From a virus (taxonomy: Duplodnaviria; Heunggongvirae; Uroviricota; Caudoviricetes): 7,264 nt of DNA. The stretch is from IMG/VR virus record IMGVR_UViG_2565956631_000003, positions 1-7,264 of that record. One strand, 5' to 3'. Of the stretch, positions 1,499 through 5,944 are shown in pieces. Made by a program: the position numbers and the translations under genes. Below the pieces are notes generated by a model. It saw nothing but the letters and a program-made list of their open reading frames with translations. It searched no databases and was not told the origin of the DNA. Every line of letters starts with the position of its first letter. The first letter of the stretch is position 1.

Positions 1499-2935
1499 TC
1501 AGAATCCTCCTTTCTTCTTGGACTGCGGTTCCTCGCGTTCACGGCGGCGCATTTCAGCAGACTGTTGGTCTGTGTCATAAATAGCGCCATTTGCCTGTAT
1601 GCAATACACCGTGCCGGTATTGCCATGGCGATTGAGGCGAAGGATTAGTTCGGTTTCACCAGGAGGAACGCTGTCATCAAAAGCACCTTCACGATGGATC
1701 CCCACCCAATAATCGCAATCCTGTTCAATCTGCCCTGTATCTCGTGAGTCACTTGGTAATGGGCGTTTATTGGTTCGGCTTTCCAGTGCGCGGTTAAGCT
1801 GTGTCAGAAGCACAACAACACAATCAAGCTCTTTGGCAAGGTTCTTCAGTCCTTTGGTGATCATGCCGTAAGCAAGGTCGTTGCGATCGGCCTTCTCAGC
1901 GGTCATTAGTGTCAGGTAATCGACCAGAATCATGCCAACACATCCTTTTTCTCGCTTGATTCGACGACTTTCGCTGACGATTTGAGCCAGAGATAATCCC
2001 GGCGTGTCGTCGATGTAAAGCAGGTCGATTTCACTCAAGCGATTGGCTGTTTCGATCGCCCTGTTGAAGTCACCATCGTAATCACCCTGATAGCCGTCAT
2101 CGGCGTCATTTGTCGCCGGAAGGTAAAATATATTCGGGTTAACACCAGACTTCTGCCCTACCAGTTTTTCCAGTATCTGGTCACCTGGCATTTCAAGGCT
2201 GAACATCAGAGCTGGCTTTTTCTCATGCACTGCGCAGTTGATTGCCATCTGGCTGTATAGCGTCGTTTTCCCCATCTTAGGGCGAGCGCCAATGACAAAC
2301 AGAGAGCCTTTAACCAGACCTTTCGGTGACAGCATCCTGTCCAGCGATGGGATCCCTGTGCTCATTCCTCGTTGTTCGCCTGACGGGTCAAATCGCTTCT
2401 CAAGGTCGCTAACCCAGTCTTCCATGACCTCACCAAATGAGCGAAGGCCGCGACGCGATCCGGTTTTTGCATGGTCTGTCAGTTGCGTGAAAATCGCCTG
2501 AATAGCTTCGTACTTCTGCGTTGCAGTCATTCCGTTGCGGGAATAGAGCAATTCCGTCGCTTCAGTCATGCGGTTGATGGCGTAGCGTTCCATTGCGGTT
2601 TCACGAACCTGCATTGCATAGGCAACGATGTTTGCTGCGCTTGGCGTGTTCTTTGCGATCTCAGCGATATAAGCAAAACCGCCAACAGACGCCGTTAACG
2701 ATTTACGCTCCAGTTCATCGAAAAGCGTCAGGCCATCTACTGGCTTTTGCTCACGGTGCATTCTGGTTATTTCTTCGAAAAGGATTTTGTGTGGTCGACT
2801 GTAAAATGAATCAGGCTTCAGCATCGCCAGGACTTTCTGGACGCGCTCACTGCTGTCATCATCCAGAAGCAATCCACCAATCACCGCCTGCTCTGCCTCG
2901 ATGCTATGGGGCGGCGCATAAAAATTATCGGTCAT
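1499..2935 (-). CDS. Replicative DNA helicase, DnaB family (P22 gene 12-like)
   Basis: DnaB-like N-terminal region (SIEAEQAVIGGLLLD), Walker A GARPKMGKTT, and a RecA-like C-terminal core. Start taken as ATG 2935..2933 (MTDNFYAPP...) with GAGGG 9 nt upstream; the ORF track's 2950 start is an upstream in-frame GTG. The start overlaps the stop of the upstream initiator gene (ATGACCGATAA). Confidence 0.9.
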   Translation of the reverse strand: MTDNFYAPPHSIEAEQAVIGGLLLDDDSSERVQKVLAMLKPDSFYSRPHKILFEEITRMHREQKPVDGLTLFDELERKSLTASVGGFAYIAEIAKNTPSAANIVAYAMQVRETAMERYAINRMTEATELLYSRNGMTATQKYEAIQAIFTQLTDHAKTGSRRGLRSFGEVMEDWVSDLEKRFDPSGEQRGMSTGIPSLDRMLSPKGLVKGSLFVIGARPKMGKTTLYSQMAINCAVHEKKPALMFSLEMPGDQILEKLVGQKSGVNPNIFYLPATNDADDGYQGDYDGDFNRAIETANRLSEIDLLYIDDTPGLSLAQIVSESRRIKREKGCVGMILVDYLTLMTAEKADRNDLAYGMITKGLKNLAKELDCVVVLLTQLNRALESRTNKRPLPSDSRDTGQIEQDCDYWVGIHREGAFDDSVPPGETELILRLNRHGNTGTVYCIQANGAIYDTDQQSAEMRRREREEPQSKKKGGF

Positions 2936-3824
2936 CGTGTTCACCCTCACGAACTTTCAGGTAGGTATTATCGTTAAGCAGGAAATCAAATCCCTTTTTG
3001 TGCCAGACGGTTCCGCGTTGATGGTTTAGGCGCTCTTCGAACATCCATCGGCAATTTTCGCCTACGTAGCTCAAATAATTTCTCCAGTCCTGCATCGTGA
3101 ACCCATGCCCGTCAAGCTGGCGTGTTATCACTCCGGCTTTTCGCCAGAACGTTCGGATCTGGTTTTTACGCTTGTCATTCAGTGCGCGGATTTTTGGCGC
3201 TTCAGGAAGGATTTCGTGGTAAGCATCGACAACATCCTGACAGCTAACGGAAGGTTTTTTCTTGTCAGACTTTTTGTCTGCTGCGGTACTCTCTAATACG
3301 TCAGTATTAGAGATAATATTATTATATTCTTTATCTGTGGTAATTTGCTGGTAATCTGCTGGTACAGTATTGCTTGCAGGCATTGGTATTGCTGGCTTTG
3401 AGGTGGTAATTTGCTGGTAATCTGCTGGTACAAAATTTGACTGATAATCGTCATATTTCTCTACCGAGAAAACTGAGAATTTACCGTGTGAAACCCAGTC
3501 AATCATGCCGAGCTTTTTGAACTTTCTAAGCAGGTACTGAACGCGATCTGGTTTGAGTCCTGTTTCAAACGCCAGAGAGTTTCTACCGCCAAGTAGCTTC
3601 CCTCTGCCTACCAGAATTTCTCCTGCGTCAGTCATTACATACTCAGGCGTATGCTTTGCTTTGAGGATTAAGTGAACCCACAGATGCGCAGCTTCTGCGT
3701 CCTTGTAAAACGGCACATCCATAATTTTACGGTGCAGCAAGGCATACCCCTTACCGCTGCTTTGATGCGGTTGTTGTAGCCTTCTGGCCTCTCTGGCTTC
3801 GGCTAGATTAGATATGTTACTCAT
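2925..3824 (-). CDS. Phage replication initiator (lambda O / P22 gp18 functional analogue) containing the origin
   Basis: 299-aa ORF immediately upstream of, and coupled to, the helicase. N-terminal region looks like a winged-helix DNA-binding domain. A central duplicated peptide [10 protein letters not shown] is encoded by the iteron DNA. Family assignment is by position and architecture, not a confirmed match. Confidence 0.75.
3305..3431. repeat. Replication origin-like iteron array with flanking AT-rich tract, inside the initiator gene
   Basis: Two perfect 30-bp copies of GTGGTAATTTGCTGGTAATCTGCTGGTACA at 3336-3365 and 3402-3431. Each holds two sub-iterons of about 11 bp (GGTAAT[T/C]TGCTGG), with degenerate copies between (GGTATTGCTGG at 3384-3394). 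Adjacent AT-rich stretch at 3305-3335 (ATTAGAGATAATATTATTATATTCTTTATC) lies downstream in the gene's direction, as in lambda ori. Confidence 0.65.
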
Positions 3825-3963
3825 GACCTTTCTCCTTCTGCATCAGCTTCACTTTTTCCAACTCAGCCCGGAATCGACCAGGCTGCTTGAAGCTGGACAG
3901 GAAGCGATCACGTAGTATGTGTTTGTGAATTTTGTCCTGGTAAGGACTGAGTTGTTTTGTCAT
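3817..3963 (-). CDS. Small 48-aa basic ORF between cII and the initiator gene
   Basis: ATG at 3963..3961 preceded by GGAG at 5 nt. Translation [48 protein letters not shown]. Its TAA stop overlaps the initiator start (ATGAGTAA), suggesting translational coupling. Absent from the ORF track, presumably because it is short. Confidence 0.35.
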
Positions 3964-3973
3964 AATTACTCCT

Positions 3974-4049
3974 GTGGATTGATCCAGTAATTCCCTCAGA
4001 ATTGCATATCAATTTGCTTAAAATCCTCGGTGGCGGCCGGGGATTTTTT
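3974..4049 (+). ncRNA. oop: oop-like antisense RNA overlapping the 3' end of cII
   Basis: -10 CATAAT at 3961-3966 with a weak -35 TGGTAA at 3938-3943. Plus-strand intrinsic terminator at 4025-4049: CCUCGG-UGGCGG-CCGGGG stem-loop followed by AUUUUUU. Predicted transcript of about 76 nt. GAUCCAGUAAU...CCUCAGAA resembles my recollection of lambda oop RNA. Confidence 0.55.
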
Positions 4050-4292
4050 CTTTGTGATTTCATCAAGCGCATACTTAAAAGCCCTGCTAATCGGACTGAT
4101 GTCTGATGCCATTCCGAAAGCACACAAGACCGAAGCAATAAATCTCCAGTCCGTTCTGCTTATCTTCGATTCATGACAGCCAATCATCTTTGCCAGACCG
4201 CGCTGGGTAAGCGTTGACAGGTTGATTAGTAAATCAGTTTCAGCGCGATCAATTTCTCGCTGTGTTGGCTTGCTGTAGCTTGCTTGTGCCAT
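3996..4292 (-). CDS. cII: CII-like transcriptional activator
   Basis: 98-aa ORF whose C-terminus ...[18 protein letters not shown] is close to my recollection of lambda CII (...TNKKRPAATERSEQIQMEF). Helix-turn-helix segment ...SKISR.... Sits between cro and the replication genes. AGGAAA Shine-Dalgarno upstream of ATG 4292..4290. Confidence 0.85.
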
Positions 4293-4407: not shown

Positions 4408-4593
4408 TTATGCCGCTTGGCGGTAAGCACTTTCTTGATACTTCAGGGCGCCAGCTGTAACGATTTCCAATCGATAGGCGTCTTTCTCTGGGATAACTTC
4501 TTTCCACTGAGAGACTGCTGCATCGCTAATGCCTAGTGCTTTAGCAACAGCACGCTGGGTTCCGAAGTGGTCAATAACATCTTTTTTGTACAT
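4408..4593 (-). CDS. cro: Cro repressor (P22 Cro-like, 61 aa)
   Basis: MYKKDVIDHFGTQRAVAKALGISDAAVSQWKEVIPEKDAYRLEIVTAGALKYQESAYRQAA matches my recollection of P22 Cro. GGAG Shine-Dalgarno 7 nt upstream. Divergent from the repressor gene across the operator region. Confidence 0.9.
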   Translation of the reverse strand: MYKKDVIDHFGTQRAVAKALGISDAAVSQWKEVIPEKDAYRLEIVTAGALKYQESAYRQAA

Positions 4594-4673: not shown

Positions 4674-5324
4674 ATGAATACACAACTGATGGGTGAGCGT
4701 ATTCGCGCTCGCAGAAAAGAACTCAAGATTAGGCAGGCTGCCCTTGGAAAGATGGTTGGCGTGTCTAATGTTGCTATTTCCCAATGGGAGCGATCTGAAA
4801 CTGAGCCCAATGGCGAAAACCTATTGGCCTTAGCCAAGGCTTTGCAGTGCTCCCCTGATTACCTGTTGAAAGGAGAGGATAGTCTTTCAAACATTGCCTA
4901 TCACAGCAGGCATGATCCAAGAGGTTCGTATCCTCTAATTAGTTGGGTAAGCGCAGGATGTTGGATGGAAGCTGTAGAGCCATATCATAGGCGTGCAATA
5001 GATAACTGGTACGACACAACGGTAGATTGTTCTGAAGACTCTTTTTGGCTCGACGTTAAAGGCGATTCAATGACTGCCCCGGCAGGACTGAGTATTCCTG
5101 AGGGGATGATTATTCTCGTCGACCCAGAAGTCGAACCACGTAATGGAAAGCTGGTAGTCGCCAAACTTGAAGGAGAAAACGAGGCGACATTCAAAAAGTT
5201 AGTTATTGATGCCGGTAGAAAATTCCTGAAACCACTCAATCCACAATACCCAATGATTGAAATCAATGGGAACTGTAAAATCATTGGCGTTGTCGTTGAT
5301 GCCAAGCTAGCAAACCTTCCTTAA
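4674..5324 (+). CDS. c2: Prophage repressor, P22 c2-type (HTH plus S24 LexA-like autopeptidase domain)
   Basis: 216-aa ORF MNTQLMGERIRARRKELKIRQAALGKMVGVSNVAISQWERSE... with an N-terminal helix-turn-helix, an Ala-Gly cleavage site (VSAG-CW), a catalytic Ser in GDSM and a downstream Lys. Near-full-length match to my recollection of the P22 c2 repressor. Confidence 0.92.
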   Translation: MNTQLMGERIRARRKELKIRQAALGKMVGVSNVAISQWERSETEPNGENLLALAKALQCSPDYLLKGEDSLSNIAYHSRHDPRGSYPLISWVSAGCWMEAVEPYHRRAIDNWYDTTVDCSEDSFWLDVKGDSMTAPAGLSIPEGMIILVDPEVEPRNGKLVVAKLEGENEATFKKLVIDAGRKFLKPLNPQYPMIEINGNCKIIGVVVDAKLANLP

Positions 5325-5528: not shown

Positions 5529-5638
5529 CCAGAACTTGAGTGGTTTTGGGGATGGCGCGAATTGCAGCTGCAAGACAGCGATCGAGAAGATAAGCACCTC
5601 GACGCGTCATGCGCCAAAGCCACTTAAAGGAGACCATC

Positions 5639-5944
5639 ATGGTAACCATTGTCTGGAAAGAATCCAAAGGTACGGCAAAAAGCCGCTACAAAGCTCGCAG
5701 AGCAGAACTTATTGCCGAGCGACGCAGTAATGAAGCACTGGCGCGAAAAATTGCTCTAAAGCTCTCTGGTTGCGTCAGAGCAGACAAAGCAGCATCACTC
5801 GGAAGCATTTGCTGCAAGAAGAAAGAAGAAGTCGTTCGAAAAAATAGAAGTATTTATTACAAGGATTCAAACCCATTAGGAAACAAAATACATGCAGTCC
5901 AAAAAATAAAATTGTACAGTAAACTACCGTACGGTGCTTATTGA
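5639..5944 (+). CDS. N: N-type transcription antiterminator (phi21-like arginine-rich motif)
   Basis: AAGGAG at 5627-5632, 6 nt before ATG 5639. N-terminal MVTIVWKESKGTAKSRYKARRAELIAERR is the arginine-rich boxB-binding motif I recall for phage 21 N. First gene after nutL. The in-frame ATG at 5609 lacks a Shine-Dalgarno. The 3' third of the gene is markedly AT-rich. Confidence 0.8.
   Translation: MVTIVWKESKGTAKSRYKARRAELIAERRSNEALARKIALKLSGCVRADKAASLGSICCKKKEEVVRKNRSIYYKDSNPLGNKIHAVQKIKLYSKLPYGAY

Follow-up and report, generated by a model that had tools for sequence, protein, structure and literature searches.

A putative replication origin of iteron triplets, AT-rich tract and covarying palindrome inside the initiator gene of an HK022-type lambdoid phage

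The initiator gene of this tailed phage carries two long direct repeats in its middle, and the question that they raise is whether they form the origin from which the phage replicates, as was proposed in a first-pass annotation made from the sequence letters, or whether they serve the protein, the control of replication or the exchange of modules. We considered this locus within the whole stretch of DNA analysed, of 7,264 nucleotides, which we call the window. Positions 3290-3432 are very probably the origin from which an HK022-type lambdoid replicon starts theta replication, placed inside the linker-coding part of its own initiator gene; this assignment comes from sequence comparison, fits every line of comparative evidence and coincides with the annotators' reading of near-identical phages.

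The repeat array and the gene that contains it

A repeat search of the window recovered the perfect 30-mer GTGGTAATTTGCTGGTAATCTGCTGGTACA twice, 66 bp from start to start (Table 1), just as first described; the chance expectation for such a 30-mer pair in 7264 nt is 3e-11. Tandem Repeats Finder gives a period of 11 in both 30-mers and, over 3337-3432, the sequence autocorrelates best at lags 11, 22 and 33. Two iterons of about 11 bp had been proposed for each repeat, but three cores were found, at 11-bp spacing (gene strand TGTACCAGCAG / ATTACCAGCAA / ATTACCAC). These units are direct repeats, no inverted symmetry being reported inside the 30-mers by the repeat search. The degenerate copies noted earlier between the repeats come down to a single clear in-register unit, AAAGCCAGCAA at 3389-3399, which agrees with a full unit at 8/11 positions; a second TACCA in the spacer lies 2 nt out of register. 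Since the six cores and the degenerate seventh share one common 11-bp register, the cores should all point to approximately the same side of the helix.

Both 3 x 11 = 33 bp and 66 bp are divisible by 3, which lets the array be translated as a duplicated peptide, and the ten residues concerned are indeed found at aa 133-142 and again at aa 155-164 of the 299-aa initiator, as had been observed. The 11-bp period itself is not a multiple of 3, so that the three cores are read in three frames. A 53-aa minus-strand ORF (3293-3454) was treated as spurious, being the iterons in another frame.

The adjacent AT-rich tract of the first description was also recovered: 3305-3336 has a GC content of 12.5%, and stability in the window is lowest, for 25-, 30- and 40-mers alike, at 3305-3334 (-26.4 kcal/mol; mean -39.8, sd 3.0). 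The limits then given to the array, 3305-3431, need correction at both ends, as the 30-mer extends to 3432 and the origin element reaches left to 3290, where a perfect 10-bp inverted repeat, overlooked at the time, follows the AT tract.

Table 1. Positions of the putative origin, of the initiator gene and its domains, and of the helicase gene in the window
Feature	Position	Strand	Remarks
Phage DnaB-family replicative helicase gene	1499..2950	-	Pfam DnaB and DnaB_C; overlaps the 3' end of the initiator gene
O-like replication initiator gene, HK022 type, 299 aa	2925..3824	-	whole putative origin in its middle
Helical C-terminal domain (aa 192-299), presumed helicase-recruiting module	2928..3251	-	pLDDT 82-91
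Inter-domain linker (aa 133-191), predicted disordered	3252..3428	-	carries iterons, AT tract and palindrome
Perfect inverted repeat TCTCTAATAC-tgac-GTATTAGAGA (gene strand)	3290..3313	.	repeat search
AT-rich tract, presumed DNA-unwinding element	3314..3336	-	gene strand AGATAAAGAATATAATAATATTA; 3' of the iterons on the gene strand
Iteron cluster 2, immediately upstream of the AT tract	3337..3366	-	same three cores as cluster 1; VT2-Sakai 'ori iteron 2'
Inter-cluster spacer	3367..3402	-	keeps clusters 66 bp (6 x 11) apart; poorly conserved sequence
Iteron cluster 1, promoter-proximal	3403..3432	-	cores TGTACCAGCAG ATTACCAGCAA ATTACCAC; encodes the 10-aa peptide; VT2-Sakai 'ori iteron 1'
N-terminal domain (aa 1-130), predicted winged helix, presumed iteron-binding	3435..3824	-	structural model and helix covariation

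The initiator is 98% identical to HK022 O and 99% identical to the O proteins of mEp235, VT2-Sakai and HK620, and it matches PHROG 345 'replication initiation O-like' (E=5e-88). The AlphaFold2 model, built from a 26-sequence alignment, is of medium confidence (mean pLDDT 67; a single-sequence model, at pLDDT 43, was unusable). It gives pLDDT 77-92 for aa 40-130 of the N-domain, with helices at 81-88 and 92-104 and a beta wing at 108-121; the 13 residues 92-104 are the predicted recognition helix. Compared with the PDB using Foldseek, the N-domain returned winged-helix DNA-binding domains exclusively, with weak scores (E 0.009-0.05), and a profile search of PDB sequences with the initiator gave no match. 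PHROG 'DnaD-like helicase loader' families match aa 25-193 (E=4.5e-21), and the resemblance of the N-domain to Pfam Phage_rep_org_N is marginal and below the cut-off (E=0.094). The linker has pLDDT values below 50 and is modelled without secondary structure. The helicase encoded by the next gene scores 584 bits against NCBIfam TIGR03600 phage_DnaB (cut-off 499) and is the presumed client of the origin complex.

Conservation of the array across homologues

The repeats are present, and at the same place, in every homologue that has the N-terminal domain; their absence from close homologues, named in the first-pass annotation as grounds for refutation, was not observed. All 115 of the 115 homologous loci with the 11-bp array have triplets in a single 11-bp register, with the AT tract next to them and, where it was searched, the palindrome. 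The usual layout is three cores, a 33-bp variable spacer and three cores, giving a cluster spacing of 66 bp; two triplets per locus are the rule, and one, three or four occur occasionally. The initiators of the natural variants with one, three and four clusters measure 277, 321 and 343 aa. An AT tract of 21-27 nt stands at the matching position in all homologues. One natural variant (L064) has a single cluster, and therefore either two clusters are not strictly required or the L064 copy is defective. At least seven iteron types could be distinguished: TTACCAGCA, TTACCAACA, GTGCCAACA, TGTCCAACG, TGTCCAGCC, TGTCCAGCG and AATCCAAAG.

Were the repeat simply a duplicated linker peptide devoid of function as DNA, arisen by protein-level duplication or by slippage in a tolerant disordered segment, then the predicted disorder of this segment and the common occurrence of in-frame 66-bp copy-number variants would be readily understood. 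The 11-bp sub-period is however out of frame with the codons, and from one iteron type to another the peptide is wholly different although the DNA grammar remains constant. Moreover, when the window is compared with another homologous locus (L073), the codons at identical residues agree at 24/25 positions within the iterons and AT tract but at 92/167 outside them (Fisher p=3.6e-5), and the peptide between diverges; for the AT tract the frozen codons are 7/7. As the 11-bp cores are read in different frames, their codons are frozen and the spacer diverges freely, selection acts on the DNA and not on the peptide, and we consider a purely peptide-level duplication extremely unlikely. The same tendency is seen in relatives with matching iteron, where spacer amino acid identity is 2-5/11 against an iteron nucleotide identity of 82-100%, and among 46 close variants, where the spacer varies at 7/36 positions and the iteron clusters show singleton changes alone, at 2/30 and 3/30 positions.

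The iteron type goes with the N-terminal domain, and in particular with the recognition-helix residues predicted in it; it does not go with the C-terminal domain, for which the minimum identity within a type is 45% and the maximum between types 100%; from these comparisons the C-terminal domain is seen to be exchanged independently of iteron type. Overall N-terminal identity overlaps in the wider sample (same-type minimum 51%, different-type maximum 81%, leaving out L006 and L115, whose 'same-type' values of 25% and 40% are extraction artefacts), and physical linkage would by itself account for part of the association of iteron type with the N-terminal domain. The covariation of iteron type with recognition helix nevertheless supports the earlier suggestion that the iteron sequence would define the replication specificity of this phage.

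In Erwinia phage Eho59, and there alone, a C-domain of the lambda-O type takes the place of the usual one and the next gene encodes a lambda-P-like loader, and the N-domain, iterons, AT tract and palindrome form one cassette with the junction right after the palindrome. This junction, the mosaic junctions just downstream of the element and the shuffling of C-terminal domains independently of the N-domain and iterons could all suggest that the main role of the repeats is that of a recombination or module-boundary sequence for the exchange of lambdoid replication modules. A boundary should have one sequence in all types; the iterons and the palindrome, however, vary from type to type and it is the architecture and the pairing that are kept, so that we give this explanation hardly any credence and retain the origin as the preferred reading.

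The palindrome beyond the AT tract

On the gene strand, the next feature after the AT tract is a palindrome with arms of 10 bp each (3290-3299 and 3304-3313), the DNA of which encodes part of ISNTDVLES. Homologues have 18 different palindrome sequences, all at one place. Their covariation is complete: 207/207 cells are Watson-Crick paired and 9/9 pairs have changed on both sides, with no wobble. With partners slid by 1-3 columns as a control, 29-53% of cells were paired, and the background was 1/817 control windows and 6/3600 shuffles. Folded as a single-strand DNA hairpin, the palindrome has an energy of -7.5 kcal/mol (z=-4.4). It constitutes a third origin element, unmarked in the public records examined.

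Covariation by itself does not tell RNA pairing from DNA pairing, and the palindrome might work as RNA, either as a terminator or processing hairpin for an antisense (+ strand) transcript or as a hairpin of the O mRNA. In a simple scan, 3290-3313 is terminator-like on the + strand, with a T-rich tail, and the phage L record has automatic antisense 'terminator' features over the corresponding spot. Yet just 3/10 pairs are G-C, the tail TAATATTATT contains no clean U run, and G-U wobble is found in 0/53 changed cells, though RNA helices usually tolerate it. The position relative to the iterons and AT tract is also fixed in every homologue, and there is no promoter-like site in 3100-4100 that could feed such a transcript. 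A role as RNA is thus unlikely; Rfam at its gathering threshold gave no match in the window. The palindrome most likely acts as DNA, whether as a hairpin or cruciform after unwinding or as a dyad-symmetric site.

We further propose, tentatively, from evolutionary evidence and as an idea somewhat short of probable, that the palindrome is obligatory in this origin family and recognised by its shape and not by its sequence, alongside a head-to-tail 'triplet' binding of the initiator to the 11-bp units that would be unlike the dimer-on-dyad binding of lambda. If the shape reading is true, a hairpin or cruciform extruded by the melted AT tract may mark where the phage helicase is loaded or where priming starts.

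Relation to known origins and proposed function

The reading of these repeats as origin iterons is not new, since they are so annotated in near-identical phages. The O genes of VT2-Sakai, HK620 and HK022 have nucleotide identities of 98.6-99.3% and contain the same element as the window; the 'ori iteron' features 1 and 2 of VT2-Sakai (AP000422) correspond exactly to the two 30-mers, the rep_origin join of HK620 (AF335538) covers 3337-3432, and the Sf6 and L records have a homologous rep_origin annotation. The VT2-Sakai and HK620 records mark the two 30-mers alone, leaving unmarked the three 11-bp cores, the AT tract and the palindrome. The public origin annotations were made by analogy with lambda. 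The literature searched gave no experiment showing that an element of this family acts as an origin, is bound by the initiator or is unwound; for origin mapping in HK022, VT2-Sakai, HK620 and Sf6 it gave sequence-based statements only.

For phage L, six 11-bp repeats in gene 18 have been described as the likely origin, and genetics are cited by which the replication region of L behaves as a unit (Zaworski 2020, PMC8022706). The gene 18/O of L, ST64T and Sf6 contains these six 11-bp repeats, TGTCCAACGGA, as predicted origin in an identical layout of three cores, a 33-bp spacer, three cores and an AT tract, with the same palindrome TCTCTAATAC/GTATTAGAGA. L/Sf6-type initiators are 64-67% identical overall to that of the window and 91-98% identical in the C-terminal part (aa 185-299), and a DnaB-type helicase gene also follows the initiator gene in L, Sf6, HK022, Chronis and others. 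By contrast, the iteron word is TGTCCAACG in the L type and TTACCAGCA in the window, and the recognition helix NKVKSLLRSF of the L type is replaced by a different 10-aa stretch; a different replication specificity is therefore presumed.

The likeness to the lambda origin, also put forward in the first-pass annotation, holds for the layout and fails for the parts. In both phages the origin lies mid-gene, in the inter-domain region of an initiator of 299 aa, and iterons, AT-rich tract and palindrome with 4-nt spacer are ordered along pR transcription; the palindrome arms are of 12 bp in lambda and 10 bp in the window. The N-domain and iterons would act as the specificity cassette in both, lambda O binding through its N-terminal part. 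However, lambda has four internally dyad-symmetric iterons of 18 bp, spaced by about 20-24 bp, and the window has two triplets of 11-bp direct repeats. The proteins share no detectable sequence similarity: BLASTP of the initiator against lambda O gives E=4.8, and Pfam Phage_rep_O (PF04492), which matches lambda O at E=6e-36, leaves the window protein and three homologues unmatched even at E<=10. Lambda O recruits the host DnaB via P, whereas the window has a phage DnaB-type helicase gene and no P homologue downstream. Finally, the palindrome of the window family covaries and that of the lambda type is conserved in sequence, being kept in four more distant lambda-type genes with no covariation signal; a viral-contig scan with lambda O returned 99-100% identical copies only.

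P22 also has origin repeats inside its initiator gene 18, followed by the DnaB-type helicase gene 12, and its replication genes lie in the early-right operon after orf48, as in the window; P22 gene 18 has four repeats of about 20 bp and its protein shares only some 25% identity with the L type (PMC8022706). In Bacillus phage SPP1, oriL lies in gene 38, encoding the origin-binding gp38, and combines direct repeats with an AT-rich unwinding element, and the phage has a DnaB-family helicase (PMC6316719); SPP1 differs from the window in having a separate helicase loader, gp39, and a second origin. DnaA boxes and an IHF site, as beside plasmid-type iteron origins, were rejected as co-factors: no DnaA box was found within 1 kb of the origin with one mismatch allowed (the window total is at chance level), and the whole window lacks an IHF consensus. 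A promoter inside the origin was likewise rejected, none being found in the interval scanned (3100-4100).

Plasmid iteron arrays serve control as well as initiation, and the repeats could in principle be initiator-binding sites for autoregulation, for a pR roadblock or for handcuffing-type copy control, with the true start of replication elsewhere; a cluster number of 1 to 4 in nature might suit such a titrating array. In every case, however, the array adjoins the least stable AT tract and a conserved palindrome, which is the layout of the experimentally defined lambda origin, and the Eho59 cassette travels with the N-domain. The window moreover contains no second iteron array, its three iteron-like 9-mers outside the element (1345, 1457 and 3935) being at chance level. 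Control sites with a start elsewhere are in our opinion very unlikely, and the element is again best read as the origin itself.

From the observed anatomy of the element and its evolution, we infer that the predicted winged-helix domain at the N-terminus would occupy the three 11-bp units of each cluster in a head-to-tail arrangement, and that the bound initiator would oligomerise and distort the DNA, upon which the adjacent AT tract, the least stable DNA of the window, would melt. The C-terminal domain may then bring the phage's own DnaB-type helicase from the next gene. Transcription from pR passes through the element, as in lambda, and the strictly maintained palindrome past the AT tract is part of it.

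Because the repeats were already annotated as origin iterons, little is added here as discovery; what our analysis contributes are DNA-level selection statistics, the matching of iteron types to recognition-helix variants and the covarying palindrome. The 156-bp element matches 372/5426 complete E. coli genomes. Replication specificity would be set jointly by the origin and the initiator's N-terminal domain in a module that many E. coli, Shigella and Salmonella prophages carry, Shiga-toxin phages such as VT2-Sakai among them. Knowledge of the exact element may be useful for building replicons and for predicting replication incompatibility or interference between co-resident prophages. It may also be useful for reading origin-sensing defence systems such as Lamassu, which senses the phage origin, at the lambda origin (PMC12663957).

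Features of the window and its genetic setting

The window comes from a lambdoid phage or prophage and spans its immunity and replication region, with the early-right operon on the minus strand and cI on the plus strand. Where they match it, its nearest records, mEp235 and HK022, are 98.5% and 97.4% identical. Because the ORF at 5609-5944 carries an arginine-rich motif, GTAKSRYKARRAELIAERR, and both records have a Nun or Nun-like transcription termination factor annotated somewhere among the genes under the match, the immunity region looks HK022-like. PHROG 1913, labelled 'tail protein', is the match for the DUF2740 ORF lying between O and cII; several RefSeq records copy this name, which at the position of P22 orf48 and HK022 gp53 looks like an annotation error. 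The plus strand contains, without mismatch, the 33-bp block that Hayes et al. (PMC3349717) assign to the oop promoter and 5' end; about 35 nt beyond it follows a strong hairpin that resembles a terminator and carries a T run, antisense to the cII 3' end. These two features point to an oop-like antisense RNA about 80 nt long, a candidate for which Rfam gave no match.

Coordinates of features in the window
Feature	Position	Strand
ninB	199-639	minus
DnaB-family helicase	1499-2950	minus
O-like initiator, 299 aa	2925-3824	minus
Palindrome arms	3290-3299 / 3304-3313	
AT tract	3314-3336	
Iteron cluster 2	3337-3366	
Spacer stretch with two recurring motifs	3377-3399	
Iteron cluster 1 (promoter-proximal)	3403-3432	
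DUF2740 ORF, 48 aa	3817-3963	minus
oop promoter/5' end block	3956-3988	plus
cII	3996-4292	minus
Terminator-like hairpin and T run	4020-4053	plus
cro	4408-4593	minus
cI repressor gene	4674-5324	plus
ORF with arginine-rich motif	5609-5944	plus

The iteron array and its conservation

The perfect 30-mer GTGGTAATTTGCTGGTAATCTGCTGGTACA occurs twice in the initiator gene, 66 bp from start to start, as the first-pass annotation had described (chance expectation for such a pair, 3e-11). Tandem Repeats Finder assigns a period of 11 to both copies, and base autocorrelation has maxima at lags 11, 22 and 33. Read on the gene strand in 11-nt units counted from gene nt 393, clusters 1 and 2 are both TGTACCAGCAG ATTACCAGCAA ATTACCAC.., with the spacer units AAAGCCAGCAA TACCAATGCCT GCAAGCAATAC between them and TAAAGAATATAATAATATTATC right after cluster 2. 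Since this register displays three cores per 30-mer, the two iterons proposed for each repeat are corrected to three, and of the degenerate copies proposed between the repeats a single spacer unit lies clearly in register. With these small corrections the original observation is confirmed, including the adjacent AT-rich tract (at -26.4 kcal/mol, where the window averages -39.8 with sd 3.0, 3305-3334 is its stability minimum for 25-, 30- and 40-mers, and has lower stability than every intergenic control region) and the duplicated 10-residue peptide (aa 133-142 and 155-164 of the initiator). No DnaA box or IHF consensus was found near the element.

Public records already name these repeats. The window's O gene finds a 98.6-99.3% identical counterpart in the 40 phage records listed; VT2-Sakai (AP000422) carries misc_binding features 'ori iteron 1' and 'ori iteron 2', bound moiety 'O protein', that map exactly to clusters 1 and 2, and HK620 (AF335538) a two-piece rep_origin covering 3337-3432. 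Sf6 is annotated with a 'repeat region reminiscent of the phage lambda origin; similar to phage HK620' and phage L with a 'putative origin of replication'. Zaworski et al. (PMC8022706) regard the six 11-bp repeats in gene 18 of phage L as the likely origin and describe lambda, P22 and L as each having different iterons inside their initiator genes. These labels for VT2-Sakai, HK620, Sf6 and L are all sequence-based, and the literature searched contained no experimental origin mapping for the HK022/L-type family, that of HK022 O and phage L gp18. Of 5426 complete E. coli genomes, 372 have a match to the segment 3285-3440, in as many as 3 places each; in 219 the match covers 80% or more of the segment. 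Identity is just 80-90% in 127 records, which are probably other iteron or C-terminal variants.

Homologous loci were collected from phage records, 80 viral contigs and 33 species-representative bacterial genomes. In every locus encoding the N-terminal domain the layout is the same and stands at the same place, namely three cores at 11 bp, a 33-bp variable spacer and three further cores, then an AT tract of 21-27 nt and a palindrome. The iteron word depends on lineage: TTACCAGCA (the window), TTACCAACA, GTGCCAACA, TGTCCAACG, TGTCCAGCC, TGTCCAGCG or AATCCAAAG. Two enterobacterial prophage homologues, from Leclercia and Silvania (L112 and L113), depart from the 11-bp period: their TTACCA cores are spaced at 12 bp, so that the repeat is in frame and encodes NYQPNYQEDYQ (gene nt about 400-560). 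Cluster number varies in frame by 66-bp steps (gene coordinates about 390-620; homologous proteins P0001-P0027), from one in locus L064 (277 aa) to three in L058, L059 and many E. coli proteins (321 aa) and four in P0001/L090 (343 aa), which is consistent with unequal crossing-over between 30-mers. Two spacer motifs recur across different iteron types: AAA(G/C)CCAG, just past the third core, and TACCAATGCCT, which is present in the TTACCAGCA and TGTCCAGCC lineages and absent from the L/Sf6 type. They may serve as additional binding sites or reflect a conserved P-M-P peptide.

Each of the three cores in a cluster falls in a different reading frame, so a peptide repeat cannot be the source of the 11-bp period. 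Iterons and AT tract are frozen among TTACCAGCA-sharing relatives that have diverged elsewhere, whose spacer peptide keeps just 2-5 of 11 residues. For one pair, the window and locus L073 (78% nucleotide identity in the N-terminal coding region), identical residues have identical codons in 24/25 cases within iterons and AT tract, versus 92/167 over the remainder of the gene (Fisher p=3.6e-5). A set of 46 close variants shows a weaker signal, with 7 of 36 spacer positions variable and iteron changes seen as singletons. On this comparative evidence the array is very probably the replication origin. The repeats were already known as origin iterons from public annotation, and our additions are limited to a covarying palindrome and a catalogue of iterons and recognition helices.

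A covarying palindrome beyond the AT tract

The AT tract is followed directly by a palindrome, two perfectly complementary 10-bp arms around a 4-nt spacer, which the first-pass annotation lacks and the public records examined leave unannotated. Across homologues the position is filled by 18 different palindromes, every one perfect; arms measure 9-11 bp, spacers 2 or 4 nt, and the distance from the last iteron is fixed. Aligned on their centres, 23 distinct 30-mers show Watson-Crick pairing in all 207 cells of the nine pairs, although the palindrome finder used for anchoring biases towards pairing; both sides change at 9/9 pairs, and sliding the partners by 1-3 columns leaves 29-53% paired. As background, such a palindrome is present in 1 of 817 control stretches of 70 nt taken from these loci and in 6 of 3600 shuffles. 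As the encoded peptides differ between homologues, the constraint is not at the protein level. Folded as single-stranded DNA, either strand gives about -7.5 kcal/mol (z about -4.4). The palindrome is unlikely to act instead as an antisense terminator or as a hairpin in RNA: its stem is AT-rich, its U tract is poor, and none of the 207 cells is a wobble pair. The lambda palindrome (12-bp arms, 4-nt spacer) occupies an equivalent relative place, but the lambda type is conserved in sequence without covariation, whereas the HK022/L type covaries. In Erwinia phage Eho59 (L204), GTCAGAGAATT, the left arm of the lambda palindrome, stands right after the phage's own palindrome.

The initiator, its iterons and the relation to lambda

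AlphaFold2, run on a 26-sequence alignment, divides the protein into three regions. The N-terminal domain is modelled with confidence (aa 40-130, pLDDT 77-92); helices 81-88 and 92-104 form a helix-turn-helix, and residues 108-121 a beta wing. The stretch encoded by the origin, aa 133-191, is an unstructured linker with pLDDT below 50, and the C-terminal domain is helical (pLDDT 82-91). Foldseek against the PDB returned winged-helix DNA-binding domains alone (CRP, ArsR/SmtB, MarR, TubR), weakly (E 0.009-0.05). Among 19 sequences, N-terminal core identity is at least 73% for same-iteron pairs and at most 73% for different-iteron pairs, and C-terminal identity (45-100% in both) gives no separation; in a wider set of 49 the N-terminal medians are 83% and 51%, with overlapping ranges. 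The predicted recognition helix follows iteron type more cleanly than N-terminal identity does.

Predicted recognition helices and iteron types
Recognition helix	Iteron
Window type (10 residues)	TTACCA(G/A)CA
DR(V/I)KYLLNKF or NRIKYLIGKF	GTGCCAACA
NKV(K/R)SLLR(S/T)F	TGTCCAACG
DRVK(S/A)LLRKF	TGTCCAGCC/G
NKVKSLLDTF	AATCCAAAG

This association is supportive of the N-domain as the putative iteron binder, and is not decisive because physical linkage alone would yield part of it. The predicted winged-helix domain would bind the 11-bp direct repeats head to tail, a plausible mode since PhoB-type regulators are established to bind 11-bp direct repeats in this way.

The proposed match to the lambda ori architecture holds for position and element order: both elements lie in the middle of a 299-aa initiator gene, both run iterons, AT tract, palindrome along transcription, and specificity would reside in N-domain plus iterons here, as it does in lambda. 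It fails for iteron type, initiator family and helicase partner. The window has 11-bp direct repeats in two triplets and lambda four 18-bp sites, each dyad-symmetric; Pfam Phage_rep_O matches lambda O (E=6e-36) but not the window initiator even at E<=10, and BLASTP between the two found no significant similarity (E=4.8); the partner is a phage DnaB-family helicase, in contrast to the lambda P loader of host DnaB. The element would work like ori-lambda, but it lies outside the lambda O family and belongs to the HK022/L type, with its 11-bp iteron triplets inside the gene.

In Eho59 (Erwinia phage vB_EhrS_59, 325-1976) the initiator is a natural chimera. Its N-domain is of the HK022 family, and its origin has three-plus-three GTGCCAACA iterons, an AT tract and a palindrome. 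Immediately past the palindrome the gene switches to a C-terminal domain of lambda type, 70% identical to lambda O 178-299, and a lambda-P-like loader comes next. Both N-domain and origin are thus joined to a lambda-type C-domain, so the two travel as a single cassette.
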